Source of the DNA: Candidatus Iainarchaeum sp.
Lineage (GTDB): Archaea > Iainarchaeota > Iainarchaeia > Iainarchaeales > 1-14-0-10-31-34
Direction of reading: 5' to 3'
DNA length: 64,000 nucleotides
Assembly: GCA_040755695.1 (NCBI GenBank)
Contig: JBFMAK010000003.1
Span: 101,879-165,878, forward strand
Shown here: positions 39,688 through 64,000 of the stretch, one piece after another
Layout: each line of letters starts with the position of its first letter
Position numbering within the stretch: position 1 is the stretch's first letter
Translations under genes and position numbers: made by a program
The notes under the pieces: model-generated
Databases searched by the model: none
What the model was told of the DNA's origin: nothing
Seen by the model: only the letters and a program-made list of their open reading frames with translations

Positions 39688-39732
39688 GCAATTACCGTTC
39701 CCAAACTTTTTACAATTACCCCAAAATTCAAA

Positions 39733-44283: not shown

Positions 44284-44853
44284 ATGCCCAAAAAAATCAA
44301 AATTAAAAAGGAAAAAAAAAGGGGAAAAAAGAAAGGTTTTTTCAGCATTGAAAGAGAGGACGCACTCAAGGGCGGAAAATTTGTTTTACGAATCCTGCTC
44401 TTTTATTTGATACTGCTCGCGCTCTCATATTTTCTTGTTCCATTAGGTTTACTGGAAGAAACAATTGCTTCTCACACTAATTATTTTTTGGGCCTTGCAG
44501 GAATCAAAGGCGAAGTAATAAAAGCAGTGAATGAAAGCCCTGCTGGAATTGAATTCCAGAAATTCAATGTAGAAATAAATTACCTGTGCACTGGCCTCCT
44601 CGAGCTCACAGTGCTCTTGGCTGCAATAATTGCAACGCCTTACATAAGTTCAAGGAAAAAAATTTTTGGTGTGATGGGAGCCATAATTGTCTCCTATATA
44701 TTCAATTTAGCCAGAATTGTCTTCACGATAACTGCAATAAGCTCTTACAGCATAAAGACAGCAGAACTGACCCATGACGTGCTTTTCAGGATTTCGCTCT
44801 TCATTATAGTGGCAGGCTACTATTTCGTTTGGCTCAAAATTGTCTCACATTGA
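44284..44853 (+). CDS. Small polytopic membrane protein, possibly exosortase/archaeosortase-family
   Basis: Conserved Cys in YLCTG and Arg residues in NLARIV and FRISLF at a spacing reminiscent of exosortase/archaeosortase catalytic residues. Weak. Confidence 0.3.
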   Translation: MPKKIKIKKEKKRGKKKGFFSIEREDALKGGKFVLRILLFYLILLALSYFLVPLGLLEETIASHTNYFLGLAGIKGEVIKAVNESPAGIEFQKFNVEINYLCTGLLELTVLLAAIIATPYISSRKKIFGVMGAIIVSYIFNLARIVFTITAISSYSIKTAELTHDVLFRISLFIIVAGYYFVWLKIVSH

Positions 44854-44858
44854 AAAGA

Positions 44859-45467
44859 TTATTTCTGCAGCAACAGGAAGGCCTTGGCATTGTATAAAAT
44901 AATCCTTTCCTTTTGAACTTGCACAGCAAAAGAGGCGGCTTTAATTAATTGCCTTTTGAATTCGTTTTCTTCGATAATTAAAGGGGTTGCCTCCCTTCCA
45001 ATATTCAAGCTGATTGTCTGAAACAACCTGATTATTCTGTTTTTTTGGGTTGAATCTGCTTTTTTGACAATAAATAAAATATCAATGTCCGATGCTCTGG
45101 TTAAATGCCCTCTCGCAATTGACCCAAACAAAACAATTGAAACAAGATTGCTTCCAAAAATTTTTTTGAAGGAGTCAATTCTATCAATCAATTCTTTAAC
45201 TACTGCAAACTTTGAGGTAGCAGATAATTTTTCCTGCTCTTCAACCAACTCAAAAGCAGATATACTCAAAGGATTGTCTAGCACTGGAAAAAGCTGCCTA
45301 ATGTTCCCAACCTGCTTTGAATAAATAAGGTTTGCTTCCTCCAATTCATTCAAGATGCCTTTAATATCTCTAAGTGAACCAACCAATTTCATTAAAGCGT
45401 TAACGTGAATTTCGGGGTTCCTGGCAACCTCCGCAAGAATTCTTTGCCTTGACTTTAAAATCAACAT
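44859..45467 (-). CDS. Minimal nucleotidyltransferase (MNT) with N-terminal wHTH, HEPN-MNT module component
   Basis: LFGSIARGHLTRASDIDILFIV is a pol-beta-type NTase motif (GS...DxD). Confidence 0.7.
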   Translation of the reverse strand: MLILKSRQRILAEVARNPEIHVNALMKLVGSLRDIKGILNELEEANLIYSKQVGNIRQLFPVLDNPLSISAFELVEEQEKLSATSKFAVVKELIDRIDSFKKIFGSNLVSIVLFGSIARGHLTRASDIDILFIVKKADSTQKNRIIRLFQTISLNIGREATPLIIEENEFKRQLIKAASFAVQVQKERIILYNAKAFLLLQK

Positions 45468-45473
45468 ATTTAA

Positions 45474-46055
45474 TCACTTCAACAATTCATCAATTTCTTT
45501 AACGAAATTAAAAGCATTTCTCCCAATTGTTCTGACATCATCTTCCTTGACCTTAGTCACAGTATACAAAACACTGTTCCTGAACTGCCTGACTTTTCCA
45601 AGCAGATCTATTTCTTCATCAAAACTTTTTCTTGCGCTGCCAAACCCTTTAACAAACCTTTCGCCATGCAGTATCTCAAGCATCAAGGCAATAGTACAGA
45701 CGTGGTCCTTGGCGGCTTGACCCAAAAAATGAGAAGTAAAAGCCTTGGCTGCCATGTACATGCCAGCATAATAAGCGATAATTGCCCAATCAAGAAAATT
45801 GTCTGATTCAAAAGATTCTGCAGTCTGCAAATGATAATGCGCTTTAGCCAAAAAGGTTTTAGCGTCTTCCTTGGTGAATCTCTGAATTCTCTTTCTTTTA
45901 AAACATTCACTCAAAACCCTTTTCACTGCCCTTAAAGATTTAGGAATCTTTGAGTCCACGTCAACAAAACCCATAAAAACAACACCGCCTGCAAAAATAC
46001 ATATAATCATATGCAAAAATACATATAAAAGATTTTCGGGTGCCTTAAAAAGCAT
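45474..46055 (-). CDS. HEPN-domain protein (partner of MNT)
   Basis: All-helical protein next to the MNT gene, with a C-terminal RQFRNSVLYT-type segment. The pairing is typical of HEPN/MNT toxin-antitoxin-like modules. Confidence 0.55.
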   Translation of the reverse strand: MLFKAPENLLYVFLHMIICIFAGGVVFMGFVDVDSKIPKSLRAVKRVLSECFKRKRIQRFTKEDAKTFLAKAHYHLQTAESFESDNFLDWAIIAYYAGMYMAAKAFTSHFLGQAAKDHVCTIALMLEILHGERFVKGFGSARKSFDEEIDLLGKVRQFRNSVLYTVTKVKEDDVRTIGRNAFNFVKEIDELLK

Positions 46056-46154: not shown

Positions 46155-49100
46155 ATGCAATTGATTGCAGAAAAGCTTGGGGCAATCTACGGTAAAGTAG
46201 AGAATGCCTTTTACGGGGTATTAGACTTCCTTGACTCAAAAGGCATTCCAGTTTACGCACTCGTAGACCCGCTGGAAGAGAGGGGCATTCCGTTCTTCCC
46301 GCTCTTTATTGCATTAATTGTAATTCTGATTGGAGGATTTGCTGCATTCACATTAATTGGAACAGGCATTGAGACAACCCTCCAGTTAAGCATTCACGAC
46401 ATACAAAACAAGCCATTGAATGAAGTGAACCTTACAGTGTATGACGACCAAGGGAACACGCTCTTAAGCCAGCCTAACGCAGAAGACAGCACTTCAATAA
46501 AACTTCCAAAAGTAAAGCCTGGAGCAAAGATAAGCCTTTCTGCCTCAAAGCAAGGCTATGAGACAGTGCAGCAGGAGCTTGAAGTGAAAGGCAACCTAAT
46601 TGACGTTTCAATTGCAATGCAGGAAGCGGCTTCAACTATAACCCCAAAAATAAGGTTCATTGATGCCCAAACAAAAACTGCTGTGCCTTATGTTCAGGCT
46701 CACTGGAGCTTCAATGACAACTCACAGGAGGGAAGCTCGGACGAAAATGGTCTAATAGAATTAACAGGAATTCCATTGAATGAAGACATCCTCCTTGAAG
46801 CAATAGCAGACGGATACGAGGATTACTCTGATACAATACAATTCACTTCAGATACAACAAAAGTAATTGAATTAATTCCAGTTGAAGGCTCGCTCACAGG
46901 CCAAAGCACACTAATAGTAAAAGTGATTGACGCAGAAACAAAACAGCCTTTGGACAAAGCAATAGTGCAGGTGTTCGACGAAGACAGTGGCTCCAAGTTA
47001 TATGAAATAATAACAGAACAAGGCGTATTCTCGGAGAAAATAGACAAAGGAACAGTTGTGAGGGTGACAGCAGAAAAAGACGGGTATGTTAAATATGATT
47101 CAAGCGAGGAAAAAAAATTCCTTACCCTGAGAAATGACACAGAAGACTTTGGAACCATAGAATTAGAGAAAGGGGGCAGCAGGATTCAAGTGAATGTATA
47201 CGACAAAGACTCAAAAATGCTTGTAATTGACGCTCAGGTAGCATTATTCAATGACAAAGGAGAAATCATTGACTTCAATGCAACAGAATTCGGGGGCTTT
47301 GTAGAATTCAAGAACCTGGACCCGAATTCCACTTACTACATTGGAACAAGCGCAGAAAACTATCTGACAGACAGAACCAAGCTCATACCAAAAGCACTGC
47401 AGTCAATAAACATTGAATTAGAGAAGATTACAGCAGACAATTCAGGCAAACTGAATGTGTACGTAAACAATTCCCTTGGAAAGCCTGCGGGAAACGCAAT
47501 CCTGAACTTCTATGAAGAAAAAGAAGGAGAAATGCTTTTATTGGGAATTCCAGCACAAAAAACAAGCTCTGATGGAGCCTACAGCACGACAGTAAAAATG
47601 AACCAAAACATTACAGTGAGAGCAACAAAAGAAGGAGAGGAAGGCCAAGCCCAAATAACAATAGAAAAGAAATCAAACGATGTCCTCATAGAAATGCAGA
47701 AAGCAAAGACAGCAAAGACAATAAAATTCTTTGACGAAAAAGGAATTCCAATAATTGAAGGATTGCTTACAATAAAAAGCCAGGCTGGCGAAGTTCTGTA
47801 TGACGGAAATTTGAATGCAGAAGTAATATTTGACACAGCAGGAAATGATTTTGTTTTAGTTCAAGCGCAAACCCCGGACGGAAAAACATTTGAGGAATTG
47901 GTTGACACAAGAAACAAGGATGAACTGTCAATAGAATTCAATAAGGCCCCAATGAACGAATTAGCTCCAAAAATAGAATTCTTGGGCATATTCGACTTAG
48001 AGGAGAATGAAATTGAAGGCCTGACAAAAGGAGAAGAAGCAATACTGAAATTTGAAACCCAATGGATTAAAGGAAACTATTCAGGCGGAGTGCACATTAG
48101 GGTAGGGCCAGACAACATCAAATACATTGACTCGCAGTATGCAGGAATAACAGGCTTTGAGGCCCCAACACAAAAATACTTTTTGGGCAGAACCTACAGC
48201 CCAACCCCTGCTCCAGGAGCAGAAGGCCTAGATTACAGCAACAGAGGCCAAACAGGAGCAATGAACAAATTCTTGGAGTTATATTTCAACAACCCTGAAG
48301 GAACAAAAATAATCAAAGTGAAAGTCCAGGCAAGAGAAACAATAAAAGAAGACAAAATTAATTTAAGTTACAGGGCATGGAGCAAAATTAATGGGCAATA
48401 CAACAGGAATCCAGCTGACACAATATTAAACGAAGAGGAATTCAATGAATCAAAGCAAGGCTTATACGCAGAAACAACAAGCAAAGAAATAAAAGTATTC
48501 ACCACAAAACCTTCATGCTCTGAAGACCTCTGCGCAAACTACTTATTTTACGACGCAAGCGGCAGGTCCTACAGCACAAAAGAATTCATTGCACTCAAAG
48601 ACAATGCTTATGCACTGGAAATAGAATTGAATGCAAGAAAAACAGTCAATGCAATAATCAAGGCTTCAACCAATCCTTCAGCGCCAAAGATTGCATTCAC
48701 AGGAAAAGAGGAAGGAGAATTCACTGAAATAGCAGACAACAATAACTCAGACACCTCAATTGAAACAACAGAAAATGTCACGAGAGCAGAAGCAAAAAAG
48801 ATAAGATTCTACTTTAAGGCAAAAGAGTTAGGAACTTCTTCTATAAAAGTCCAAGCAATAGCAGGAAGCTCTTCAACTGAAGAAGACTTATACTTCAAGG
48901 TGTTCCAAGAAAAAGAAATGAGCCTGACAACAATCCCCTCAGAGCTCAGCTTCGGGAAAGACTTTGAAATACAATTAAAAGGAAAGAATGAAAACGAGCC
49001 CGTAAAGGACGCAGAAATAAAAATCTTTAATTCAGAAGAAAAATTGGTTGAACACATAGTTGGAGACGGAAAAAATGGAACGGGAGCAAACGGAAGATAT

Positions 49101-52100
49101 AAAGTAAATAATAATTTGGGATTAGGAAGCTACAGGATTGAAGCAACTTCCCCTTATTATACCCCAATAAGCTCTGAAATCACAATAGGAAAAGAAGACG
49201 CATTCACTTTAGCAGAAAAAATTTCCTTGTTTATTCCAGCGCAGGAGACAAGCACTGCAGCAACAGAATCTTTGAGTAATAATTCAGGCGAAGACATAGA
49301 TAATATCTCAATTGAAATCATTAAAGAAAAGAATTTCCCTTCAACGCTTGAGGTTACAGCAGAAACAAACCCTTTCATGAATAAGGGAGAGAAAGCAGGC
49401 ATTGAATTGAAAGCAGACTATTCAGGCGACCCAGCAGTAACCGTGCACGGGGAAGCAGACTTAATAATAACAGGAGAAATTAAAGGAAAATTTACTGCAA
49501 AGGCAAAATCCAAAATCATAATAGAATACAACAAGAAATTAGATGGAAGCTGCCTGCAATTAGACAAAACAGAATTAAAGGAATACCTGATAGGCCAAGA
49601 AGGAAACTCAAAAGACTTAGAGCTCACAATAAAAAACAACTGCGGAATGCCCTTAACACTAAAAAGCGAAATAACACCAAAAACAACAAGAGAAGAAAGC
49701 ATTGAATTCATCCTGCCTGAAGTAAGGCTGAAAAAAGATGAAACACAAACAATAAAGATTGGAGTACAGAACAGGATAAGAAGGACATTTGACGCGCAGG
49801 AAAACAAGGACTACACCTTCTTCCTGAAATCCTTCCAGATAACCAAAAGCCTCCCACTCACAATAATTTTATGGGACGAAAAATTCTCTTTAAGCGCCCC
49901 AGCACAGTTAGTATTCTTCCTCACTCAATCAAAAGCAAACCAGAAAGCAGTAAGCTTCCCGCAATTTGTCTATGTAAGAAACACAGGCTTTGCAGACATA
50001 AAAAATTTAACATTAGGAATTGACAGGGTTGACTGGCAGAATGTAGGCATAAGAATCCTGCCAGAACAGGCAGTGCCCTTACTGGCAAAAAGCCAAAACC
50101 TAAACCCCCCTTACATCTTAGTGGCAGAAGGGGACTCAGCAAAAAACAAGTTCGTGAAAGGAAGGCTGCTCTTAAACGGATTCATTGAAGGAAAAAGCTA
50201 TTTGCTCAGAACAATCGATGTATTCGTTTACGTGAGCGCAGGAATGAGCTGCCTTGAAGCATGGAGCGATGAGGACTTACTCTTTATTTCAAGCGAAACA
50301 GGCCCTGTAGTAATACAGAAGCCAATAAAAATATTCAATCATTGTCTTGAGCCAGTGCAGATAACAGGCTTAATGGCTCCAGGGGGAAGCATCCCGAACA
50401 CAGGGAACAATCAATTGTACACTAATGCAAGCAATACAACCTTAATGCCTGACACCCTGGGCGAATTCACTCTCACTTTATCTGCTGACAGGGACTGGCA
50501 GGGAGAATCAACAGTAATACTTAAAGGATTCGGGGTTAACAGCCTGCAGGAGATTGACTCCAGCCCATTAAAGATTTCAATAAAGAAAGGAGAGAATGTA
50601 AGCACGTGCAATGCAGGAGCTGATCAGCCGTGCCTTTCATCTGACTCACAGACCATAGACGTGTGCGGTGAAGGCGAAGGCTCAAAAACAATATTCTGGC
50701 CTAAAATATCACAGAACAACGACTGCACCCAAGGCTACTGCGACGCAAAACAATTATCTGTATTCCTTGCAGAAAAACTGCAGCAGAAAATAAAAGAAGC
50801 AAAATCAAGAATCCTCACTCTAAGCAGTTCATCCCTCAATTTAGGAGGGAAATGCATTGAAGGATACTGCACTTTCGGAGCCTTAGGAGTAAAGCCTGAA
50901 TCATTTGAATTCTACTTCCAGGGAGACAGGCTTGGCACAGGAATATTCGAGAACGAGATAAGGCAAGGGAAATACGATGAATTATTGAATCCTTACATAA
51001 GGGAAAGCGACGAAGACATTACAGACATTGCAAGGTCAGGCTTTACTGGAAGAACAATAATAATTCCAATGCAATTGAAAGGCTGTGGAAGATATACAAC
51101 AAAAATTCTTGGGGCAGTGCAGGAATACAATACAGAATTAAAGCCAGAGAACATTGCAATCCAAGTAAAATTGGACGGGAGAAGGGAGACAACACCAGAA
51201 TGCAATAACAGGATACAGAATGTAATGAACTTCCTTCCAGTAGACAAAGGCTATGATGCAGGAACAAAAGATGCAAGCTGGGCTGCCCTCATAAGAAGCA
51301 ATTCAGACCTGAAAGACATAGCAGAAGACTTCGGGAAAGCATTGTTTGAAACAGAAAAAGGAAGGGTTGTAAGCAGTCCATCAGACAACTACATTGAATT
51401 CGCAGTTGCAGACTTAGGGCAATACATACTCAAAATAGAAATTGAAAGGAAAGGCGCAGCAGACGAGCCAAAAAAAGTTTTAGTAACAATTAATTCAAAT
51501 TACAATGAAGCAAGCGATGAAGTCACAAGAAAAAGCATTGCAACAGAAGCAGGAAACATTATAAGAAGGTTAAAGAACAACAAGATAGACAAGGGCTGCA
51601 TCTCAAAAAACGAAGACTACTTCCTCATAAGCTCAGTGAAAGACTTCAAGGAAGAGGCTGCATTGAAATTAGAAGGACCAAAGGAACTGAAATTATACAT
51701 CAACAAGGAAAGCTGCATTGACCTGAATATTACAACAAAAATTAAGACTGCATTAGACATTGCATTCAATTCCTCTGACTTCAAAAGCAAGGCAGGCATT
51801 ACAAGCATTGGCCTCAAAAAAGAAAAAAAGGATTCAATTGAAGAAAAAATAAGCTTTGAGGCAGGGCAATTGAAATTAAAAGGAAAAGACGAGAAGAATA
51901 AAATTTATTCTGCTTCCTTCCAGTTGTGCGCCACAGCAGACAATGAAGTGCAATACGCAGACTTAAGCGAGGTAACAGTGAACATAGAAGGAATAGACAT
52001 TGAAGACCACAAAATTACACTAAAAATCTGCGGCATAACACCGCAAGACTTGTACGCAGAAGTAAGAAACAACATCAATAACAATGCCTTCAAAGTCGGA

Positions 52101-54050
52101 GAAAAACCTTATTTTGCCACAGTAGGCTGGAACGACAATGGAGATACTTTGAGTCTGGCTGACATAGAGAAAGACTACTACGACAAGCACAAAGACCAAG
52201 ACCCGCAGAATGTGCTAAAGAAAGAAATCAAAACAAAGAGATTAACTGGGATAGGCGCTTATACGGCGGGTTGTGTTGCTGGCGTTTTTGCAACCAATGC
52301 TGCATATACAGTAGTTGGGTTAGGATTTGGAAAAATTTTTTGGGATCTTATATTTGATTGCGGATTGCCCGCAGGAGTGGGAGCGGCAAATGAGTTTGGC
52401 GCATTTGAAGGCAACAGCCCATTAAAGCCTCTGAAAGGAATAATAAACTTTATTGGAGGCGGCATGAACATTGCAGGAAAAGTTGCAGGGGTTGGAGGCA
52501 CAGAAACACCCCCAACCTCTTCAGGGTATAACTTGGAAAACCAGAAATTGGATGACGGCACAGGAACAGAAAACTTAAGTGAACAAGATTTAAGCCTAAT
52601 ATATGGAACAACAGCTATAGATCTATTAGGGAGAGGAATAGCCGGTGGAGCAAAGAAATTAGTAACAAAAGCAGAAGTACCCCAGGCTCCAGCACCAGCA
52701 GTACAAGATTTTGCTAGTCTGGAGAAAAAAATAAACGACTTAGGTTTCTCTATACAAAAGCACAACAATGCAGTAATAAGTGCAAGAAAAGATTATGGAA
52801 AAACTTTATCCAGTAGTCTCCGCCCAGAAGAAGCTGTTGAAATAAGAAAAGCATCTAATCATTTCATAGAAGGAATTTTGAAAGAAGGGCAGGAAATTGA
52901 CGGCATGTTCAGCAAGATGGATAGAACAACGCTTGCAGCACATCAAAACGATTTATTAAAGTTTAAGAAAATGCTGGCTAACATAGAAATTGAGGAAGCA
53001 AAAGGTGGCTCAATAAGAATAATAAGCAAAAGTTCAATAACCAGAGTTCAGACAAGTGTATTAAGTGACCCTGCAGTCGTATCAGACATAGAAAATATAA
53101 TTAAAGCAGGGGGAAAACCCAAAGTCACAGCACTCAAAGAAGTATTATCTGTAATTAAAAGCCCTATTACAAGAGGGATCCTAAAATTTTTAGGTGGGCA
53201 GTTAGGAGGAAAGATTGTGTGGAACTGGTACTGGAAATCGCAAGGCCCAGTTTCTCCTTATGAAGTTACATCTGGAATAGTGAAGACTGAAAGAGGGGTA
53301 ACCTCAAATGTGGATGGAGGCGTTTTCGAGAAAAACCAGACATACAAAGTGTCTTTAAAGAAAGACGAGAAAACAGGCAAACCATTAATGCAATTCGAGA
53401 AAGTGGTAGACTTAAAAGATGTTGACAATGAAAGAAGGCTTGATGACTGCGACGGAAAGTTCCTGGAGCAAAAGCCCCCTGAAGCTAAGACTGCTTTATC
53501 ACAGGCATGTAATATCACAAAAGAAAGTGTAACACCCCAAAGCCTGAGCAGATGCGAGCCATTAAAGACGCCAATAGAAACATTTTCCAGTTCATTCACT
53601 GTTGACCCGCTAATGATGACATCAATTTACTGGCAGGAATCAAAATGCAATCCAAATGAAGCAGACGGAGGGCTATGCCAGCTTACATCAGAAAACAGGC
53701 AAGGGATTACAACAACAGAACAGCAAATACGGCAGTGCACTAAACTTTATTCTGATTGCCTGCAGAATGCCCGAGGCAAGGGCCTTTCAGGGGAAGAAGC
53801 AACGCAATACGCTTTATTCTGCTTCAACAGAGGCCAGGGAACACAGAATCTGGCACTTGACCTGAAATACAATCAAGGGAAAGACAATTATACTGCAATG
53901 GCTGAAGCGTGTTATACTTATTTCAAGAATGGCTGCGGCAAGCTATCAGCAAAAGACTGCTGTGAAGGGGAAGGATTTGGCGCAAGATATCCTGAAAAAG
54001 TTTTAGGAATTTATAATAAGGCGTGCAGCGAGATTGGAACTCCTGCATAA
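46155..54050 (+). CDS. Giant membrane-anchored surface protein (2631 aa) with repeated prealbumin/Ig-like domains, a Gly-rich hydrophobic segment and a C-terminal lytic-transglycosylase (SLT)-like domain
   Basis: N-terminal conserved motif plus TM (…GIPVYALVDPLEERGIPFFPLFIALIVILIGGFAAF). Repeated CarbopepD_reg-like units (VKVIDAETKQPLDKAIVQVFDEDSG...). C-terminal YWQESKCNPNEADGGLCQLT resembles the ES..NP.A...G.GLMQ motif of family-23 lytic transglycosylases. Confidence 0.8.
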   Translation: MQLIAEKLGAIYGKVENAFYGVLDFLDSKGIPVYALVDPLEERGIPFFPLFIALIVILIGGFAAFTLIGTGIETTLQLSIHDIQNKPLNEVNLTVYDDQGNTLLSQPNAEDSTSIKLPKVKPGAKISLSASKQGYETVQQELEVKGNLIDVSIAMQEAASTITPKIRFIDAQTKTAVPYVQAHWSFNDNSQEGSSDENGLIELTGIPLNEDILLEAIADGYEDYSDTIQFTSDTTKVIELIPVEGSLTGQSTLIVKVIDAETKQPLDKAIVQVFDEDSGSKLYEIITEQGVFSEKIDKGTVVRVTAEKDGYVKYDSSEEKKFLTLRNDTEDFGTIELEKGGSRIQVNVYDKDSKMLVIDAQVALFNDKGEIIDFNATEFGGFVEFKNLDPNSTYYIGTSAENYLTDRTKLIPKALQSINIELEKITADNSGKLNVYVNNSLGKPAGNAILNFYEEKEGEMLLLGIPAQKTSSDGAYSTTVKMNQNITVRATKEGEEGQAQITIEKKSNDVLIEMQKAKTAKTIKFFDEKGIPIIEGLLTIKSQAGEVLYDGNLNAEVIFDTAGNDFVLVQAQTPDGKTFEELVDTRNKDELSIEFNKAPMNELAPKIEFLGIFDLEENEIEGLTKGEEAILKFETQWIKGNYSGGVHIRVGPDNIKYIDSQYAGITGFEAPTQKYFLGRTYSPTPAPGAEGLDYSNRGQTGAMNKFLELYFNNPEGTKIIKVKVQARETIKEDKINLSYRAWSKINGQYNRNPADTILNEEEFNESKQGLYAETTSKEIKVFTTKPSCSEDLCANYLFYDASGRSYSTKEFIALKDNAYALEIELNARKTVNAIIKASTNPSAPKIAFTGKEEGEFTEIADNNNSDTSIETTENVTRAEAKKIRFYFKAKELGTSSIKVQAIAGSSSTEEDLYFKVFQEKEMSLTTIPSELSFGKDFEIQLKGKNENEPVKDAEIKIFNSEEKLVEHIVGDGKNGTGANGRYKVNNNLGLGSYRIEATSPYYTPISSEITIGKEDAFTLAEKISLFIPAQETSTAATESLSNNSGEDIDNISIEIIKEKNFPSTLEVTAETNPFMNKGEKAGIELKADYSGDPAVTVHGEADLIITGEIKGKFTAKAKSKIIIEYNKKLDGSCLQLDKTELKEYLIGQEGNSKDLELTIKNNCGMPLTLKSEITPKTTREESIEFILPEVRLKKDETQTIKIGVQNRIRRTFDAQENKDYTFFLKSFQITKSLPLTIILWDEKFSLSAPAQLVFFLTQSKANQKAVSFPQFVYVRNTGFADIKNLTLGIDRVDWQNVGIRILPEQAVPLLAKSQNLNPPYILVAEGDSAKNKFVKGRLLLNGFIEGKSYLLRTIDVFVYVSAGMSCLEAWSDEDLLFISSETGPVVIQKPIKIFNHCLEPVQITGLMAPGGSIPNTGNNQLYTNASNTTLMPDTLGEFTLTLSADRDWQGESTVILKGFGVNSLQEIDSSPLKISIKKGENVSTCNAGADQPCLSSDSQTIDVCGEGEGSKTIFWPKISQNNDCTQGYCDAKQLSVFLAEKLQQKIKEAKSRILTLSSSSLNLGGKCIEGYCTFGALGVKPESFEFYFQGDRLGTGIFENEIRQGKYDELLNPYIRESDEDITDIARSGFTGRTIIIPMQLKGCGRYTTKILGAVQEYNTELKPENIAIQVKLDGRRETTPECNNRIQNVMNFLPVDKGYDAGTKDASWAALIRSNSDLKDIAEDFGKALFETEKGRVVSSPSDNYIEFAVADLGQYILKIEIERKGAADEPKKVLVTINSNYNEASDEVTRKSIATEAGNIIRRLKNNKIDKGCISKNEDYFLISSVKDFKEEAALKLEGPKELKLYINKESCIDLNITTKIKTALDIAFNSSDFKSKAGITSIGLKKEKKDSIEEKISFEAGQLKLKGKDEKNKIYSASFQLCATADNEVQYADLSEVTVNIEGIDIEDHKITLKICGITPQDLYAEVRNNINNNAFKVGEKPYFATVGWNDNGDTLSLADIEKDYYDKHKDQDPQNVLKKEIKTKRLTGIGAYTAGCVAGVFATNAAYTVVGLGFGKIFWDLIFDCGLPAGVGAANEFGAFEGNSPLKPLKGIINFIGGGMNIAGKVAGVGGTETPPTSSGYNLENQKLDDGTGTENLSEQDLSLIYGTTAIDLLGRGIAGGAKKLVTKAEVPQAPAPAVQDFASLEKKINDLGFSIQKHNNAVISARKDYGKTLSSSLRPEEAVEIRKASNHFIEGILKEGQEIDGMFSKMDRTTLAAHQNDLLKFKKMLANIEIEEAKGGSIRIISKSSITRVQTSVLSDPAVVSDIENIIKAGGKPKVTALKEVLSVIKSPITRGILKFLGGQLGGKIVWNWYWKSQGPVSPYEVTSGIVKTERGVTSNVDGGVFEKNQTYKVSLKKDEKTGKPLMQFEKVVDLKDVDNERRLDDCDGKFLEQKPPEAKTALSQACNITKESVTPQSLSRCEPLKTPIETFSSSFTVDPLMMTSIYWQESKCNPNEADGGLCQLTSENRQGITTTEQQIRQCTKLYSDCLQNARGKGLSGEEATQYALFCFNRGQGTQNLALDLKYNQGKDNYTAMAEACYTYFKNGCGKLSAKDCCEGEGFGARYPEKVLGIYNKACSEIGTPA

Positions 54051-54071
54051 ATTTTGTTTTGGTGTTATTCA

Positions 54072-55721
54072 ATGAAAAGCAAAGGCTTTACATTATTCAC
54101 TGCTCTGGTTTCTTTTGTGCTGATTGTGCTAAGCATTCTTTTAGTGCAGGGAATGATTAATGCAGAGAGGGCGAGAATTGACACTATAACTGCAATAGAA
54201 GAGCAGGCTAAAATGCAGGAGATCGCAGACCATGAAAGAAACGATGCGCTGCAATTGCTTGTGTACGACATCAGGTTTGAGCTGGAGGACTACTTCAACA
54301 GGGAAGACAAGATAGGCCCTTTATGCTATAATTGCAGCTTTGATGAATTAGTCCAGCAGTTTGCTGAAAGCAAGTTCGGCGCCTGCTCCAGAGAAATGCC
54401 TGCAGAAGAATGCAACAGGACAGGGGGGGAACAATTAGCGAATTTTGTTGCAGCAACCTTGTACGGGCAATTAAGCTCGACAAAAACAATAGGCTCTTAT
54501 TACATTAAAACTGACCTGGGAGATGAAACAGAGCTCAAGTCAAGCCTGAAAAACTTGATTAATAAAAGTGCAGGGCAAGGATCTTTTTTTAAAGTAATTG
54601 AATGCGAGAACGGAGACCCTAAAAACTGCACTGGAACATTCTATCTTTCCTTGAGGGTAGGAGACCTTTCAAACGAAGAATACGAGAAGCTGCCCAGAAT
54701 TTCAGTCACAAACACGCAGACAGGCAGAGTGCTTCAAGTTGCAGTCCTTCCAAGAAGCAACTTCCAGATTTATGTGCCTTTAAGATTCTTCAAGGCAGTG
54801 GCAGAAGCAAGGGCACTAGTAATGGAGTACGATAAAGAGGATTCTGGAAGCTGGAGCAGTAACATGGGGTTATTCAGCCCGAGAATACACAACGAATTAG
54901 AAGAATTGAAATTAGGAATGTGCGACAAAGACATTTGCAATTATAGAACAAATCCCTATAAGCCCCCAGACAGTGAAACAATGAGCACGGCATGGTGCCC
55001 TAATGAATTGGCCCCCCCGCCACTAGATCAAAGCATAAATTGCGATAGTCTATTATTTTCTTTAGGGTTTTGCGATGGCAGAATTACAAAATATAACCCA
55101 TCGAAAAAGAAAGACATAGAAGATGCAGTAATAGAATTGACAAAAAAGAGGTTGTATAATTTAATTGACAATAAACTTAACATTTACCTAAATAATGACC
55201 CTAATTTTAAATATGTTGGTAGCGAAATTACCCCTGCTGTCGAAGTAAAAAATTCAAAGATTATTTTTTCGAGCGGAAGCTTAGCATCAGTATCTGGAAA
55301 TAAAGATTGGTCTTACAGGGACCCTTGCTCTTACACTAATACTGGAGTTTGGCTTGAAAATAATAAAATAAAAGGAGAAAAAATTTCTGGTGAATGCGAA
55401 GGAGATCAATCAGGCACTTTAGGTCACGGTTTTTGCGGGGAACTCTCATCAATTGATGTTGTATTTAAGTTCAATGAATTAAATCCGCTTTATGCAGTAA
55501 ACAAAAAAAAACCTGAACACAAATATTCAATCTGGTTTGAAGACAATCTTTATTCATCTTTTACAGCAAAATATGAAAGAAAAGCAACAAACAGTGACTG
55601 TGCACTTAATGGAGAACCTCAGCCTATTTCAGGCGGATGCAATTATGTTGCTGGGTGGAGTTGTTTTGTTGAAATTCCAATGAGTGGCTCATACGAAGGA
55701 TGCCAACCAAAAGCCCCTTAA
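54072..55721 (+). CDS. Cys-rich pilin-like secreted protein (550 aa) with class III/type IV-pilin-type signal peptide
   Basis: MKSKG|FTLFTALVSFVLIVLSILL (a G|FTL-type prepilin motif). Many Cys residues. GGTG RBS upstream of the ATG at 54072. Confidence 0.6.
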   Translation: MKSKGFTLFTALVSFVLIVLSILLVQGMINAERARIDTITAIEEQAKMQEIADHERNDALQLLVYDIRFELEDYFNREDKIGPLCYNCSFDELVQQFAESKFGACSREMPAEECNRTGGEQLANFVAATLYGQLSSTKTIGSYYIKTDLGDETELKSSLKNLINKSAGQGSFFKVIECENGDPKNCTGTFYLSLRVGDLSNEEYEKLPRISVTNTQTGRVLQVAVLPRSNFQIYVPLRFFKAVAEARALVMEYDKEDSGSWSSNMGLFSPRIHNELEELKLGMCDKDICNYRTNPYKPPDSETMSTAWCPNELAPPPLDQSINCDSLLFSLGFCDGRITKYNPSKKKDIEDAVIELTKKRLYNLIDNKLNIYLNNDPNFKYVGSEITPAVEVKNSKIIFSSGSLASVSGNKDWSYRDPCSYTNTGVWLENNKIKGEKISGECEGDQSGTLGHGFCGELSSIDVVFKFNELNPLYAVNKKKPEHKYSIWFEDNLYSSFTAKYERKATNSDCALNGEPQPISGGCNYVAGWSCFVEIPMSGSYEGCQPKAP

Positions 55722-55906: not shown

Positions 55907-58900
55907 ATGGGGTTGAAGGAATTCTACCACAGCATTGAAGACGCTTACTATGGGTTAATGGACCAACTGGACAGGGCGGGAATTCCAGTATACAAAATAA
56001 TTGACGCAATCGAAGCAAAAAACATTCCGTCATTTCCGTTCTTCTTATTGTTTGTAATAATAGTGCTGTGCGGCCTCTACTTCTTTGTTGCAGTCCCAAT
56101 GCTTGGGCCTTCAATGAATTCTTTTTCCTTGGTTGTGGCAAGCGACAAAGGCCCAATAGAAAATGCTGTAGTGAAACTCCAGGTTGACGACAACATTACA
56201 ACCTATGTTACTGACGACAAAGGAAAGGTCTCCCTCACAATAACCAAAGGCAAAGGATTCCAGCTGACAATATCAAAAGAAGGATTTGAAGAAAAAACGC
56301 AGACCTTCAGCGCAAACGAATCAGGAGCAACAATCACATTAAAGGGCCAGACAAAAACAGTTACTGTAAGGCTGCTCAAGGCAGGGACAAGCGAAATAAT
56401 AAGCCAGGACGTAAGCGTTTCATTCTATTGTTCAGGCAACTCCGATTATTATAAAACTGAAACATCAAGCGACGGAGTAATAGAATTAGCTGATGTTCCA
56501 TATGACTGCGGGACAATCACAGCAGACTCAAGGGAGTTAAGCTGTACAGACTGCAGTTTTGACTCAAGTGACAGCAGTTCCTCAATCTACTTGCAAGAGG
56601 AAGAGCAAGGAAAAGGCACTGTAACATTAAGCGTGCAGGACGAAAACCTGGAGCCAATAGCAGGAATTATTGCAAGGATTATTCCAAACAATGGGAGCAC
56701 AACAGAGGAAACGAGGTGTACAACAACAGGAACAGGCGCGTGCACTGCAAGCAATGTGCCTTTCGGGGAATACTATTTCACTCTGACAGACAGCAGCGAA
56801 AAATATGAGTTCTATGATTCTTCTCTGAAAAACAATTTCATTACAGTCAATTCTTCAAACACTAACGCTTACTTAAGCACCATAACATTAGGCGAAAAGG
56901 TTGTAGGCCAAATAAAAGTAAAAATAATTGATGATTCAACAAAAGAAGCAGTTAATGGAGCTGAAGTGAAATTATTCAAGGACGGAAAAGAGCTGTACAC
57001 AAAAAATTCAGGTGAAGACGGGATTGTAGTATTTAATGTAAGCGAAAATGTTTCCTACTTCCTTACAGTGAATCATGTTGATTACTTGATTCCTGGCCCG
57101 TTGGCAGGAATAAAGCCGAGCGATGAAACAAGAGAAATAGAATTAAGCAGGGCTGACTCAACAAACAGCCAGCGGATTGAAGTTCAAGTATTGGACGAAA
57201 AAGAAGAGCCAGTAGAGAACGCAAAAGTATTCCTGAAGGACGCTGACAGGCCTTCAGTGATAATAGGCCAAATGCTTGTAACAGGGGTAGATGGAAGAAC
57301 CCAATTCGAGAGAGTGAAAGAAGGAAGGTATTTAGTTTACGCGGAAAAAACAGGGTTCAAAGGAAAAAATTCCGATGAAATAGTTACAGTAAAACCAAGG
57401 CAGCCTGCCTCTACAATAGTTAACTTGACAATAGGCCAGGGCACAATAGAATTAAAGGTATTGAACGAAGAACAGCAGGGCATTCAGGGGGCAACAATCA
57501 AAGTAATGGACTACTTTACAGGCACAGAAATTGCAACAGAGCTTACAGACACGCAGGGAGAAAAAACATTGACTTTAAGGGCAGACAAGAAAGTTTACTT
57601 GATTGCAAGCGAAAGCACCAAAGCAGATTATACTACAACCCCAATCCAGTTATTCCAGGGCGCCCAAAGCAATACGATAACCATGGTGGACCAAAGCAAT
57701 GCAAAAAACTTCAAGGTATTATTGAACGGAATTTATGGTATGGATGAACAGGCAGTAAGCGAAGGACAGGGAGAAACAGCAACAGTGCTTGACTCAGGCC
57801 AAAGCTTTAAAGTGAAATTGCAATTAATCCTGCCTAATGCATCCTACTCAAGCGCTGGAATACATTTAAGGACTGGAGCAGACACAGAAAACCAGGATAA
57901 CATAATGGAGCAGGACGACTTATACTTAAAGGATATTACTGCACCAAATGCAAGGATAATTAAAGGAACTTCCTTCAATCCTTCAAACGGTTACTCGATA
58001 GACTCGCAGCATTTAACTTCAGGGAACTCTAAATGGGCTAATGTAATTTTTTCTAATCCGAGAGCAGGCGTAATTGAAGCAGAAGGCGTAATTCAATTAA
58101 GGGGAAGCCCTGCAAGCACTCAAATGAATCTGGCTTACAGGGGCTGGGCAGTATCAGGCGGAACATACTTAAGGGACCCTTACGATTCAGAACTAAAAGA
58201 ATCTGAAAGCACTGCAACAAAACAGTCCTTGTACGCAAAAGCAAAATACGAGCCAATAAGAACTGGAAGCTCTTCACTCTGCACTGAGAAGTTCTGCTAC
58301 TGGTTCAGGATAACAGACCAGAGCACTGGAGTGCAGACAACTGTATCGGACAGCATGCCTGCAGAAATGTCCAATTCCTATCAACTTGAATTCAATTTAA
58401 TAAGCTTGAGCGAACAGAAATTCTATGAAGTCTCATTAAGCATTGCAAATGACAGCCAAGGAATTGAGTTTAAGAATTTTAATATCGCGGGAGAAAACAA
58501 GAATTTAAAGGCATCAAAGATTTTGAAGCCTTTGGGTGAAATAAGCAAAGGAGAAAAGATTTCAGGGACAATAGAATTCACTACAAAAAAAGAAGGGGTA
58601 AACAAGATAGACTTCGGCTTGAGCGCCAAAACCTCTCTTGGAACAGAAAAAGCATTCTTTAAGTCAATCAAAATTGACGTGCAGGCAGCAGGGGAATTCG
58701 AATTACAGGTTGTGCCTGCAGTACTAGTTTCATTAATACAGAATGATATAATAGTGAAGGCAGTTGATTTGTTAGACGGAAGCCCTGTAAGCGATGCCAC
58801 CATAAAAGTAATGAAAAACAATAATAATTTGTTTTCAGGGACAACAAATTCGGATGGAATTTACTCTTTCTCTCTTGAGCCAATGAGCACGGGAACAAAG

Positions 58901-61900
58901 GTTTCAATAACTGGAAACAAGATAGGATTCAAGGAAGCGGAAAAAGAGCTTACGACAACAGAACAGGTCCTGCTTGTAAGCCCTGAAAGCATTAGCGAGA
59001 GCTTCAATGCAGCAAAAGATGTAACCATAAAAAGAGACCTTATATTAAGGAACACAACTGAAGTGCCTTTGACTGTAAGGGCAATTGAATTCAGCGACGA
59101 CTTCAGGAAAATGGTGAACTTAAATTTAAGCGACGGAATAATAGGCCAGGAAATGACAAGCAGCGTGGATTACAACACATTGCTCTCAATGAGGATGACC
59201 CCTGCAGGAAGAAATATTGAAGAATTAACTGAATTGAACGGAAAAATAATTATCACGCTGGAAAGCATCCAGATTGGAAGGCAGTGGGCGCAGGAAATCC
59301 CATTAAACATTACAATAGGATTAGGGAATGAAGTAGATGACCCTTCATGTTTAAGCATAAGCCCTAATGAATGGAGCATTTCAATTGAAGGAGGAAAAAT
59401 TAAAACAAAATCTTTTGCCCTGGCAAACAACTGCAAGGTTGAAGGAAAACCCCTTGAATTAAAGAGGCTGCAGGCAAGGATTGCATGGGAGAACGGCAAT
59501 GAGACAGGAACATTCACTTCAAAGCTTGAGGGAAGCTCACTGCAGTTAGGCACAAGCTGGAAACAAATTTCAGGAACATTAAAGCCTTCAAGAGGGGACG
59601 GAACAGGAATAGAAATCCAGTTCAAGGCAGACGACATAAGCTCTGGAACTGGAGAACCAAAAATTGAATTCAAGGCAGAGAACAGGACACAGCAAGGCAT
59701 TGAAGAATTAAGCACTTCAATTAAAACAAGCCTTAACGTAAGCAAATTAACAGAATGCGTGCAGGTAATTCCCACAGGGCAGCTGAGAGTAGAATTAGGG
59801 CCATACAATTTAGGTTACGGCCTTTACCCGCAGCAATTCGGGTACAATCCTTATCAGCAAGCACCATACTATTACCAGCAATACAATTCATTTTATCCGG
59901 GCACATCATACGGAGGATACGGAAACAACCCTAATGTAGTAATGTACCCAGAGCAATTAAACCAAAGATATCCTTACTCTTATTTCTCAGAGCCATTAAC
60001 CAATTCATTCTATTACGACAACCAGTACAATTATGCTTTCCTGCCGCCGAATTCTGGAAGAAACAATTTCAGAGTGCAGAACAACTGCTCTAATACAGTG
60101 CAGGTAAGCATTGAGCCAGACCAGGCACTAGGAGTATCAAAGAATACCTTGACATTAGAGCCAGGCAAAGACGAGCAAATAAATGTTTACTCGACATTAT
60201 ACGCAGGAAATTACGGCATAATAGTAAGAGCGCAATTAAAGGATTCAACAGAAGGCAAAGCAGACATCACAAGAATTCCAGTACTGGTGGAATCAGAATA
60301 CTTCAGGGATTACAGGGATTGCATCTTCCTCAACAAAAGAACATTCCAATTCAATGACTTCATAGCAAAGCCCGACACAGGAATAATATTCAACAAATGC
60401 TATGACGTGGGAGTAAGGCTGAATTATGACTCAATTGGAATCACTTGGGGCTGGAACTACAGCAATACTCCAGGCAACACTGGCAGCAACCAGCCATCGC
60501 AGCAATCAATATCTGTAACGCCAGGAATAATAAAAGACATAAGAGTGCTTGAACTCCTTGAAAAGCCAGGGCCAGACAACAAGATAATACAGCAATTAGA
60601 ATTCGAAATGATTAAAGACATAGAAAAAAGCTACAGGAATGACATACTGGAAAAATTCAAGGCAATAGATGCAACAAAAACGCCTATTACAGAAATAGGA
60701 ATATACAGGGCAAAAATAACAGCAGGATACTATGAGGTTGAAGCACCTGCCAATCTCTCAGTGAAATTCATCAACAGGGTAGGCGCAAGCGATTCATTAA
60801 ATTTTAACATAACAATAGAAGACAAGTGGGCTGCCCTTCCATTGATATCAGAAGAAATTAATTTCGGTGACCCAGCCATAACAAAATTCCAGAGCTGCAT
60901 TAACGGCGATGCCTTAAATGTAAAAAATTACTGGGCGGGAAGAGGAAACGAAGGCTGCCTTGAAGAAAACCAATTCATTAATGATATTTACGAGCACGAA
61001 TCGGACACTAAAGTAATGAAAATTGCCAAGCAAGGAGGCTGCGGGAGCGTTGACAGTTTAAGCCAGATAAGCCCGCAGACCTACACCGACTCTGCAAGCG
61101 GGCTAAAATTAACATTCCAGACAGTAGACGGAGGCCACAACATAAAGCTTAGAGTGGACAAAAGCAATATGACAACACAAGAAGCAACAATTAACACTAC
61201 AATCTACGCAAACCTTACAAGAATGACCCCTTCAGGAAACCAGAAAGTATATATTCCAGTCAACGTGTGCGTGAAATTGAAGGAAGCCCCTCCAATTGCC
61301 TTGACGCCTGAAGAAAAGATATGCAAGGCAAAAATAGTGAGCCCGGAAGGGCTTTCATTGGAAGAATTGAAAAAGAAGATAGAGGAATTGTGCGCCAGCC
61401 TTCCGGCAGAAGGAAAGCAGAAAGTGGAGGACGCATTGAAAGCACTCTTATCCAAAGAAGAGAAATGCGATGAAGGCACTACAGGAAAAGGCGCTTCAAT
61501 AAAATACGGTTTCGACAAATTAAGCTTTACGTGGAATCCGGAAAAGATAGACGGGCAGTTCTGTTACGGCAGCTTCTGCGATGCAGCGCAGAACTCCATT
61601 GCCTCAGTGAAGAAACTAGAGGAAATCAAGAAATTCATTTCAGGAAAAGAAACAGAATTAACTGCAGCATGCGAAAAAGAAAAAACGTTCTTGCCAATTG
61701 GGGGAACTATTCATATTGAAAGCACGGCATGCAATAATAAGGATGCAGCCAATCTTTACAGGTTCGCAGTAAGCCAGGCAAGAGTTGTTGATAAAATCAC
61801 GGCAAACGAATTGGTGTTCTTTACAGGAGAAGACGGAATAATTGAGGGAAGCAAAATTGATTCCTCCGACGAGTACATCAAGACAATGGCAAGCAATGTA

Positions 61901-63544: not shown

Positions 63545-63558
63545 ACGGTGAAAGAAAA

Positions 63559-64000
63559 TGGGAGTAACAGACTTTTATTACGCGCTCGAAGACAAATACT
63601 ATGATTTAATGGACAGGATTGACCGGGTCATCCCAATACACAAGATAATTGAGCCAATAGACAAGGTCTTCCCCTCATTCATTCTGTTCATTATAATTAT
63701 CCTGCTTCTCATAGGCTCAGGGATTTACTTGGCATTAGGAGGACTGCCAGGAAAAGACGTGCAATTAACATTCCATGTAACAGACCAGAGCAGAAGCAGC
63801 CTGAACGCAATAAGCATTAGCGCAACACATGATTCAAAAACCGAAAGCCTTACAACAGACATGACAGGAAAAACAATGCCCTTGACAGTGAAAGCAGACA
63901 CAATTGTTTCATACGAGATAGATGAAAGCTCCTACGAAAAATTAAGCGATTCAATTAAAGTCGAAGAAAACAAGACATTAACGCTCACCCTTTCGCCGAA
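63559..64000 (+). CDS. Third giant-protein paralogue, 3' truncated by window edge
   Basis: MGVTDFYYALEDKYYDLMDRIDRVIPIHKIIEPIDKVFPSFILFIIIILLLIGSGIYLALGG has the same N-terminal motif plus TM. A prealbumin-like domain starts (LTFHVTDQSRSS...). Confidence 0.6.

Follow-up and report, generated by a model that had tools for sequence, protein, structure and literature searches.

The C-terminus of giant protein 1, a protein of 2,631 residues encoded at positions 46155–54050 (+ strand) of the window (the whole 64-kb stretch of DNA that was analysed), is a true GH23 domain with a lysozyme-like/lytic-transglycosylase fold. We consider it probable that giant protein 1 is a membrane-anchored DPANN surface protein and that its terminal domain, ∼ 170 residues long and disulfide-rich, cuts foreign murein. 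The NCBI entry with the identical sequence is 'MAG: hypothetical protein AB1467_05960 [Candidatus Diapherotrites archaeon]'. This label and a geranylgeranyl-reductase-type gene within the window confirm the archaeal source assumed in the original prediction.

Domain organization of giant protein 1

The protein begins with a motif of ∼ 45 residues (Y.K.E..FYG.LD.LD.KGIPVY...D.LE.RGIP.FP), common to all giant paralogues and orthologues, and a strongly hydrophobic helix (residues ∼ 48–70), presumed to be a membrane anchor; together they occupy positions 46155–46364 (+). The CarboxypepD_reg, prealbumin-like and Ig-like β-sandwich region that follows (positions 46365–52241, +) is presumed to be extracellular, and the first ∼ 1,000 residues of the protein are paralogous to giant protein 2. 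Next comes a Gly/Ala-rich hydrophobic element (residues 2030–2115, positions 52242–52499, +), predicted to form two to three helices. A mostly helical linker (residues 2116–2336, positions 52500–53162, +), which is poorly conserved, differs in length between orthologues and is modelled with low confidence, leads to a third conserved helix, hydrophobic or amphipathic, that is preceded by a Lys-rich flank (GILKFLGGQLGGKIVWNWYW; residues 2337–2363, positions 53163–53243, +). A small conserved β-sandwich ('KNQTYKVSL'; residues 2372–2416, positions 53268–53402, +; pLDDT about 82) and, after it, the near-invariant C2432 precede the Cys-rich GH23 domain (SLT/goose-type-lysozyme fold; residues 2460–2631, positions 53532–54047, +), which contains 11 Cys. 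Both sequence strings quoted in the original prediction are found in this reading frame where it had placed them.

The C-terminal domain is a divergent member of GH23

The original prediction read a lytic-transglycosylase-like domain from the C-terminal motifs and expected a significant profile match and a conserved catalytic Glu in a structural model. The domain and the Glu are borne out by homologues, fold and alignment; the profile match is obtained only through homologues, the sequence alone remaining below the threshold of Pfam SLT (PF01464; 12.4 bits, E = 0.12, against a gathering cut-off of 21.3 bits). When scanned alone, the last 192 residues matched no Pfam family at E ≤ 0.01, the C-terminus matched no NCBIfam model, and the only phmmer match among PDB sequences was a designed repeat, which is spurious. 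A word-indexed search with residues 2030–2631 found no homologue, whereas the whole-protein query did succeed. An exhaustive HMMER search with the C-terminal domain yielded 59 homologues at E ≤ 1e-3, 23 of them at E ≤ 1e-10. A leave-one-out profile built from 42 homologues, with the protein's own sequence excluded, gives the domain 135 bits (E = 2e-34 after scaling to 1.8 billion proteins); the ES...GLxQ...NRG motif is therefore not a chance occurrence. Pfam SLT is matched by 34 of the 43 aligned homologues (best E-value 6.1e-13) and Lysozyme_like by eight. Against PDB sequences, the family profile finds cod g-type lysozyme (3gxk, 3.3e-7) as well as goose lysozyme, MltC, MltE and MltF.

The AlphaFold model of the domain (pLDDT 91, pTM 0.85) has the lysozyme-like α-helical fold with its substrate groove, and the top 50 Foldseek matches in the PDB are nearly all GH23 enzymes (probability 1.0). 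The one exception among these 50 is a Staphylococcus aureus lipoprotein named as NlpC/P60. A six-frame translation of the window contains no second GH23 copy.

Catalytic residues and mechanism

The GH23 domain contains the motifs QES (E2495–S2496), GGLCQ, FNRG, CC and GFGARYPEK, the first two lying within the string YWQESKCNPNEADGGLCQLT (residues 2492–2511, positions 53628–53687). Nine alignment columns are invariant: E56 (= E2495), C59, G67, N119, R120, G121, C147, C164 and Y173. Glu2495 (codon at positions 53637–53639, +), the predicted general acid, is thus found in 43 of 43 aligned sequences, and Ser2496 is conserved in at least 90% of the aligned subfamily. Cod and goose lysozyme have their ES at the aligned positions, and in the model the Glu (E56) is the last residue of helix 46–57. 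GGLCQ (residues 2505–2509) and FCFNRGQG (residues 2554–2561), which bear the GLxQ and NRG motifs of the substrate groove, follow downstream of the Glu in the right order and with the right spacing.

Two consensus residues are replaced in giant protein 1, GLCQ standing for GLMQ (Met to Cys) and FNRG for YNRG (Tyr to Phe), the Tyr being at least 90% conserved in the subfamily. Taken together with the score under the Pfam cut-off, these changes could mean that the domain has lost its catalytic activity and does no more than bind carbohydrate or mediate adhesion. We regard this as most improbable: the Glu–Ser pair and all invariant subfamily columns are kept, both substitutions are conservative, and both are also present in the orthologue P0002 (75% identical), so they have been maintained and carry no signs of decay.

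As an active enzyme, the domain would use Glu2495 as the general acid in backbone cleavage. The goose-type lysozymes (goose, cod, salmon) resemble it in size and in their ES and GLMQ motifs and provide its best PDB profile match. They differ in that GLMQV is immediately followed by an Asp (Asp97 in the goose enzyme), which aids hydrolysis; an equivalent is absent from giant protein 1, which reads GGLCQLTSE and shows a gap or Thr at the consensus 'qvd' position of the profile alignment. MQVD (GGIMQVD) is present in many members of the subfamily. Because the second g-type acidic residue is missing at the equivalent position, the alignment suggests a transglycosylase-type or otherwise altered mechanism, and the reaction is probably lytic-transglycosylase-like rather than hydrolytic. 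Glu2513, two residues further on, might conceivably act as a substitute acidic residue. From the Family 1 lytic transglycosylases (Slt70, MltC, MltE, MltF; PF01464, GH23) the domain is set apart by low identity (13–18%), by its 11 Cys, by a C-terminal extension typical of the DPANN subfamily (CC...GxGAxYPEK...AC) and by its carrier, a giant archaeal surface protein, whereas the Family 1 scaffold is periplasmic or a lipoprotein.

Relatives and the likely substrate

All named relatives of the GH23 domain come from DPANN archaea (Woesearchaeota, Pacearchaeota, Micrarchaeota/Micrarchaeia, Diapherotrites and Nanoarchaeota). A scan of a genome collection with a six-sequence alignment gave five loci, all in archaeal MAGs; the same scan with the single protein gave no relatives. 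Most homologues start with a signal peptide, a membrane anchor or a pilin-like N-terminus, and fusions of the same domain to pilin-like N-termini occur in other DPANN genomes. P0017 and P0030 carry Amidase_3 (N-acetylmuramoyl-l-alanine amidase) alongside the GH23 domain. Among the giant orthologues, P0002 and P0027 have the same GH23 domain, the syntenic P0006 has a canonical Pfam SLT domain at the same position, and P0004, P0008, P0009 and P0011 end in other, unrecognized domains. That a syntenic orthologue has a GH23 domain of another lineage in this place suggests selection for wall-cutting activity at the C-terminal end.

Since the archaeon makes no murein, the substrate would have to be foreign, from a bacterial partner, prey or debris. 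We envisage that the GH23 domain lies outside the cell and would cleave the MurNAc–GlcNAc backbone of bacterial peptidoglycan, with the long β-sandwich region presenting the enzyme in the manner of a spacer or adhesin. The bacterial cell wall is the most plausible target, given that in relatives the same domain is fused to Amidase_3. A non-murein glycan such as chitin or chito-oligosaccharides, archaeal pseudomurein or the surface glycan of an archaeal host is a decidedly improbable substrate. According to PMC8204110, the DPANN that have been cultivated live as episymbionts on other archaea, in line with a target of this kind. However, Amidase_3, with which relatives pair the domain, cuts the murein-specific MurNAc–l-Ala bond, and it is murein lytic transglycosylases and g-type lysozymes that the domain matches best. 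Pseudomurein in particular, with its β-1,3 links to N-acetyltalosaminuronic acid, is resistant to lysozyme-type enzymes. The murein target suggested in the original prediction is in this respect supported; its comparison with a tape-measure protein is an analogy only.

The same prediction called a murein-directed enzyme unexpected in an archaeon and suggested horizontal acquisition. The first statement is out of date in view of the DPANN precedents in PMC8204110 and PMC9723730. For the second there is no sign of recent transfer: the G+C content is 0.41 here and 0.37–0.43 nearby, and the subfamily extends across several DPANN lineages. We therefore reject recent horizontal transfer (no compositional break, conserved synteny) and, on the same grounds and with no phage genes among the ORFs scanned, a prophage origin.

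The Gly-rich hydrophobic element

The element begins with LTGIGAYTAGC at residue 2030 (position 52242), and IGGGMNIAGKVAGVGG ends at residue 2115 (position 52499). The original description of a Gly-rich hydrophobic stretch is accurate. Gly makes up 23% of the 86 residues against 7.9% of the whole protein, more than in any other 86-residue window of giant protein 1, and charged residues account for 9% against 26% overall; only 0.08% of 86-residue windows are equally hydrophobic, and these all lie near the membrane helix at the N-terminus. In 10 of 10 aligned orthologues the element is likewise hydrophobic and has the same two Cys (C2040 and C2069), so it is not a chance feature. P2072 is nearly invariant ('DCGxP'), and the N-terminal flank is positively charged.

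The orthologues that carry the element are 28–75% identical to giant protein 1 and some lack a lytic domain. Since P0005, P0007 and P0010 have the element alone, the two parts do not form an obligate module. As judged from these sequences, the element is a feature of the giant-protein family as a whole and independent of the enzyme. Neither a PDB search with a profile of residues 1985–2436 nor a word-indexed search based on the aligned hydrophobic region gave any match, and the AlphaFold model of residues 1985–2436 (10 sequences, pLDDT 48) is unreliable for topology. The helices are moderately hydrophobic (KD about 1.5, compared with 2.85 for the N-terminal anchor), Gly/Ala-rich and show small-xxx-small spacing.

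The element looks membrane-active: it may anchor the protein a second time in the membrane of the producer, or it may insert into that of a partner. In the former case the element, alone or together with the helix at residues 2337–2363, would hold the enzyme at the cell's own surface, where it would scavenge peptidoglycan fragments or debris. We regard this as possible, if somewhat unlikely. Nearly all orthologues are hydrophobic at both positions, positive flanks precede both helices, and two crossings would keep the Cys-rich GH23 domain outside (with an odd number of C-terminal helices crossing the producer's membrane it would be cytoplasmic); papers on DPANN also stress their limited metabolism and nucleotide scavenging. 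Against a second anchor, the helices are weak as membrane spans, with Asp, Asn and Lys inside, the Lys-rich stretch in front of the first helix would lie on the outer side, contrary to the positive-inside trend, and the model of the region is unreliable. Nor does a second anchor give a reason for a spacer of ∼ 2,000 residues that loops back to the membrane.

The element was also considered as a target of the neighbouring archaeosortase-family enzyme. This was rejected: ∼ 520 residues separate it from the C-terminus, and another protein of the window, the product of an ORF of 1,497 residues, bears a canonical C-terminal sorting tail. The tripartite C-terminal signal of archaeosortase/exosortase substrates is absent from giant protein 1, whose last residues (...ACSEIGTPA) belong to the soluble GH23 domain, and residues 2030–2439 matched none of the NCBIfam sorting-signal models.

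Comparison with tape-measure and penetration devices

T5 Pb2 is a phage tape-measure/ejection protein that combines hydrophobic segments with a muralytic domain, and for some proteins of this class such C-terminal parts have been proposed to penetrate the target cell. A second ejection protein with a muralytic domain, T7 gp16, came up in the GH23 comparison. By analogy, the enzyme of giant protein 1 might open the peptidoglycan of a partner on contact and the Gly-rich helices might then enter its membrane. The order of parts fits, with an N-terminal anchor, a spacer of ∼ 2,000 residues and, at the far end, hydrophobic helices (residues 2030–2115 and 2337–2363) and the muralytic domain. The moderate hydrophobicity of the helices sets them apart from the strong N-terminal anchor, virion-associated lysins (among them internal virion proteins and one tape-measure protein) use the GH23 fold, and a type-IV-filament machine is encoded in the same cluster. 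Nevertheless, we consider such a device unlikely. Giant protein 1 as a whole matches no Pfam tape-measure family, and its first 2,000 residues contain CarboxypepD_reg/Ig-like β-sandwich domains, a different spacer architecture. In PHROGs, residues 2030–2439 have no match at E ≤ 1 and the last 192 residues match only two weak families of unknown function (E = 0.11 and 0.44). The ORFs scanned include no phage genes, and the locus has no tail-gene module. P0005, P0007 and P0010 do without the lytic domain, and four further orthologues end in unrecognized domains. The term tape-measure-like, used in the original prediction, thus describes an analogy of architecture, with no homology beyond the GH23 fold; giant protein 1 is a cellular gene whose synteny is kept across DPANN MAGs.

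We further speculate that the conserved C-terminal block (Cys-bearing Gly-rich hairpin, helical linker, third helix, β-sandwich and exchangeable end domain) might be an envelope-breaching head, linked to the type-IV filament, that would attach to a bacterial host, cut its wall and enter its membrane. The end domain varies (Cys-rich GH23 in giant protein 1, canonical SLT in P0006, unrecognized domains in other orthologues). We rate such a head as quite unlikely; if real, it would be a device for cross-domain episymbiosis or predation.

Large lytic-transglycosylase-domain proteins in DPANN

To our knowledge, DPANN archaea are mostly uncultivated and their partners unknown. A giant surface protein that carries a murein-cutting enzyme would be among the few sequence-level hints that some of them interact with bacteria rather than with other archaea. 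PMC8204110 (2021) describes large lytic-transglycosylase-domain proteins of DPANN that are predicted to be extracellular (fam00969, up to ∼ 3,000 residues), and Vigneron et al. (2022, PMC9723730) describe a GH23 'large lytic murein transglycosylase' in Woesearchaeota MAGs; the role proposed in both is binding or degrading bacterial cell walls. By the description of that family, giant protein 1 resembles the fam00969 type in its DPANN origin, its length of 2,631 residues, its N-terminal anchor and its GH23 domain, and it adds to these published proteins. It differs in being labelled Diapherotrites at NCBI and annotated only as hypothetical, because its domain has diverged too far to be recognized by Pfam SLT. 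The excerpted accounts make no mention of a hydrophobic Cys-bearing element, a swappable C-terminal domain or synteny with type-IV-pilus and archaeosortase genes. What is added here is a GH23 subfamily that is rich in disulfides, has only DPANN archaea among its named members and is missed by standard annotation in giant protein 1, and the location of the gene within a conserved cluster with type-IV-pilus-like genes.

Gene neighbourhood

Directly downstream lies an ORF of 555 residues with a type-IV-pilin-like N-terminus (MKSKGFTLFTALVSFVLIV; positions 54054–55721, +; probable start at position 54072), and then giant protein 2 (2,545 residues, positions 55907–63544, +), a paralogue of giant protein 1 over the N-terminal ∼ 1,000 residues that lacks both the hydrophobic element and a GH23 domain. 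Upstream are an archaeosortase/exosortase-family protein (positions 44284–44853, +), whose position is kept in related loci, and the core of a type-IV-filament machine (positions 37312–42018, −), which consists of a T2SSF-like platform protein (37312–39687) and a FlaI/TadA-like ATPase (39733–42018). Pilins, an NTase/HEPN pair and paralogous giants are further neighbours. The gene order is conserved in two other MAG contigs (L001 and L002), both with an ORF of similar size at the place of the 555-residue ORF.

Specialized lytic transglycosylases are also encoded in type IV pilus and secretion loci (VirB1, EtgA, BfpH and R64 PilT). They open the producer's own murein for assembly of the machine; the target of giant protein 1 would instead be foreign, because the archaeon makes no murein. 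Elsewhere in the window, an ORF of 1,497 residues (positions 27803–32296, −) ends in LPENP, a helix and RKNRKRK.

The C-terminal domain of giant protein 1

Giant protein 1 (2,631 aa) is encoded by an uninterrupted ORF (46155..54050, +, window translation). The original prediction named two strings, and both are found exactly at the positions it gave: a Gly-rich hydrophobic stretch at aa 2030-2115 (nt 52242-52499, +) and the catalytic-motif string YWQESKCNPNEADGGLCQLT at aa 2492-2511 (nt 53628-53687, +). An identical NCBI protein ('MAG: hypothetical protein AB1467_05960 [Candidatus Diapherotrites archaeon]') and a geranylgeranyl-reductase-type gene in the window (11062-13833, +), split by an intein that bears a LAGLIDADG endonuclease, support an archaeal (DPANN) origin. 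G+C around these segments is 0.41, no different from that of the surroundings.

Taken alone, the last 196 aa match Pfam SLT only below threshold (E = 0.12, 12.4 bits, cut-off 21.3) and have no match in NCBIfam or among PDB sequences; a PHROG scan of the C-terminus returned only two weak hits, to families of unknown function. A significant SLT match is thus absent for the giant 1 sequence by itself, but is obtained through its homologues. Searched exhaustively with HMMER against 1.84 billion representatives, aa 2440-2631 retrieve 59 homologues at E <= 1e-3, of which 23 reach E <= 1e-10. Nine columns are invariant in an alignment of 43 sequences (A1): E56 (Glu2495), C59, G67, N119, R120, G121, C147, C164 and Y173; S57 and Q70 are almost so. 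The consensus (...QESSCNpn...GIMQV...LFGYNRGxG...AMxxAC...CC...GLGAxYPEKI...AC) comprises the three classic GH23 motifs and a Cys-rich C-terminal extension. With the window sequence left out of the profile, the giant 1 domain still scores 135 bits (E = 2e-34 at full library size), and Pfam SLT is matched individually by 34 of the 43 members (best 6.1e-13), Lysozyme_like by eight. Among PDB sequences the A1 profile matches cod g-type lysozyme (3.3e-7), the goose, swan and ostrich lysozymes, MltC, MltE and MltF, with the conserved Glu aligned to that of their ES motif. In the AlphaFold model (input A1; pLDDT 91, pTM 0.85) this residue, Glu56, is placed where helix 46-57 ends. Giant 1 departs from the consensus at two residues, GLCQ for GLMQ and FNRG for YNRG; both changes are conservative and recur in P0002, an orthologue at 75% identity. 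The putative catalytic dyad is present in the sequence. Homologues, PDB profile matches and the model together leave little doubt that the lytic-transglycosylase-like end is a genuine GH23 fold.

Mechanism, substrate and location

The g-type lysozymes carry an Asp directly after GLMQV. Many members of the Cys-rich subfamily keep it; in giant 1 it is missing (GGLCQLTSE), so that the sequence leans towards a lytic-transglycosylase-type rather than a lysozyme-type mechanism.

At the N-terminus nearly all GH23-domain homologues have a signal peptide or membrane anchor, and several have an archaeal pilin-like sequence. The 11 Cys within 172 aa of the giant 1 domain fit an extracellular location with disulfide bonds. 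Amidase_3, an N-acetylmuramoyl-L-alanine amidase domain specific for murein, is joined to the same GH23 domain in two of ten relatives scanned (P0017, P0030). All organism-named relatives are DPANN (Woesearchaeota, Pacearchaeota, Micrarchaeota/Micrarchaeia, Diapherotrites, Nanoarchaeota). Extracellular bacterial murein is the probable target of the enzyme.

Relatives from other DPANN genomes (P0028, P0030, P0038, P0039) join the Cys-rich GH23 domain to N-termini such as MEFSVFRLAIYAVIAV, which closely resemble that of a pilin-like ORF of the window (36228-36752, -; SKGQEFSVFKLLISAVIAV). Judging from these fusions, pilin-like proteins may serve as a display platform for the lytic domain. In P0014 the GH23 domain is directly preceded by thrombospondin-type repeats and a sub-threshold 'T4SS_pilin' (PF18895) two-helix segment (aa 237-288).

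The hydrophobic element and the giant-protein family

Gly makes up 23% of aa 2030-2115 (7.9% of the whole protein), the highest content of all 86-aa windows of giant 1; charged residues account for 9% (26% overall), and only windows near the N-terminal membrane helix are more hydrophobic. Full-length homologues at 28-75% identity (P0002, P0004-P0011), with P0027 added from the domain search, share one architecture: a conserved ~45-aa N-terminal motif and a strong membrane helix; a ~2,000-aa region of CarboxypepD_reg/Ig-like domains; the Gly/Ala-rich hydrophobic element with invariant C2040 and C2069 and a 'DCGxP' motif; a variable helical linker; a third hydrophobic helix (aa 2337-2363); and a small beta-sandwich (aa 2372-2416) followed by the near-invariant C2432. 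The N-terminal motif (Y.K.E..FYG.LD.LD.KGIPVY...D.LE.(K/R)GIP.FP) immediately precedes the membrane helix in all giant paralogues and orthologues, and occurs in the window at 46155-46364, 55907-56140 and ~63558-64000; the last copy belongs to a third giant that starts at ~nt 63558 and extends past the window end. Its 'RG|IP' plus hydrophobic helix is like a class III (prepilin) cleavage site, although one with an unusually long leader.

Beyond C2432 the family diverges. P0001, P0002 and P0027 carry the Cys-rich GH23 domain, P0006 a canonical Pfam SLT domain that the Cys-rich profile does not recognise, and P0005, P0007 and P0010 simply stop. P0004, P0008, P0009 and P0011 end in other domains, ~150-200 aa long and unmatched in Pfam (for example ...ALLVAVGILKSGLGT...GC... 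and ...VAFLTVDPERIEGC...); these could be alternative effectors that escape recognition, or lysozyme-like domains that have diverged strongly. Since orthologues sharing the hydrophobic element differ in or lack the end domain, the element is a feature of the giant family rather than of the enzyme, and the end domain is exchangeable. The presence of two different GH23 lineages in one position argues for selection of wall-cutting activity at this end of the protein.

The original prediction read element and enzyme as a single, tape-measure-like penetration module. The GH23 half is well supported; the two parts, a family element and an exchangeable end domain, are not an obligate module. The hydrophobic helices are only moderately hydrophobic, with a basic flank before both, and the predicted model of the region is unreliable (pLDDT 48). 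They may cross the producer's own membrane or be able to insert into a different one; an extracellular GH23 domain requires that crossings number zero or two. Among the ORFs scanned there were no phage genes, no tape-measure similarity was found by PHROG or Pfam, and the GH23 fold, which also matches virion lysins, resembles them no more closely than bacterial enzymes; the likeness to a tape measure is therefore one of layout and not of kinship. We consider it unlikely that hydrophobic block and enzyme form a true host-penetration device. The observation itself is confirmed, its interpretation partly supported.

Comparison with published DPANN proteins

Giant 1 matches the descriptions of large DPANN lytic-transglycosylase-domain proteins in two papers. 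Castelle et al. 2021 (PMC8204110; family fam00969) suggest that such proteins bind or degrade bacterial walls, and cite three DPANN genomes in which they had been seen earlier. For Woesearchaeota MAGs, Vigneron et al. 2022 (PMC9723730) describe genes for a 'large lytic murein transglycosylase' (GH23) and consider predation. The present analysis adds a domain established in a copy missed by annotation, a defined Cys-rich GH23 subfamily, the conserved hydrophobic block with its exchangeable end domain, and synteny with type-IV-pilus-like genes.

Gene neighbourhood

Giant 1 lies in a conserved cluster (33644-64000) whose core recurs in two other DPANN contigs, L001 and L002. Upstream are several small ORFs with class-III-type pilin N-termini, a T2SSF-like platform protein, a FlaI/TadA-like ATPase, an archaeosortase/exosortase-family gene and an NTase/HEPN pair; downstream are a 555-aa pilin-like ORF, giant 2 (paralogous over ~1,000 aa, without the C-terminal block) and the start of the third giant. 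The core order is almost unchanged in both contigs, although the P0006 giant is just 34% identical: around P0006 and P0002 the ATPase is followed, with little rearrangement, by the archaeosortase-family gene, the NTase pair, giant 1, an ORF of 500-620 aa and giant 2. The nucleotidyltransferase/HEPN pair, a toxin-antitoxin-like module (44859-46055, -) between the archaeosortase-family gene and giant 1, is at the same place in L001 and partly in L002. The T2SSE ATPase of L002 (2431-6252) has an intein that the window's copy lacks. A 1,497-aa protein (27803-32296, -) without Pfam domains has a Sec-type signal peptide and a tripartite tail (LPENP, a hydrophobic helix and RKNRKRK); the product of the archaeosortase-family gene (44284-44853) is a plausible processing enzyme for it.
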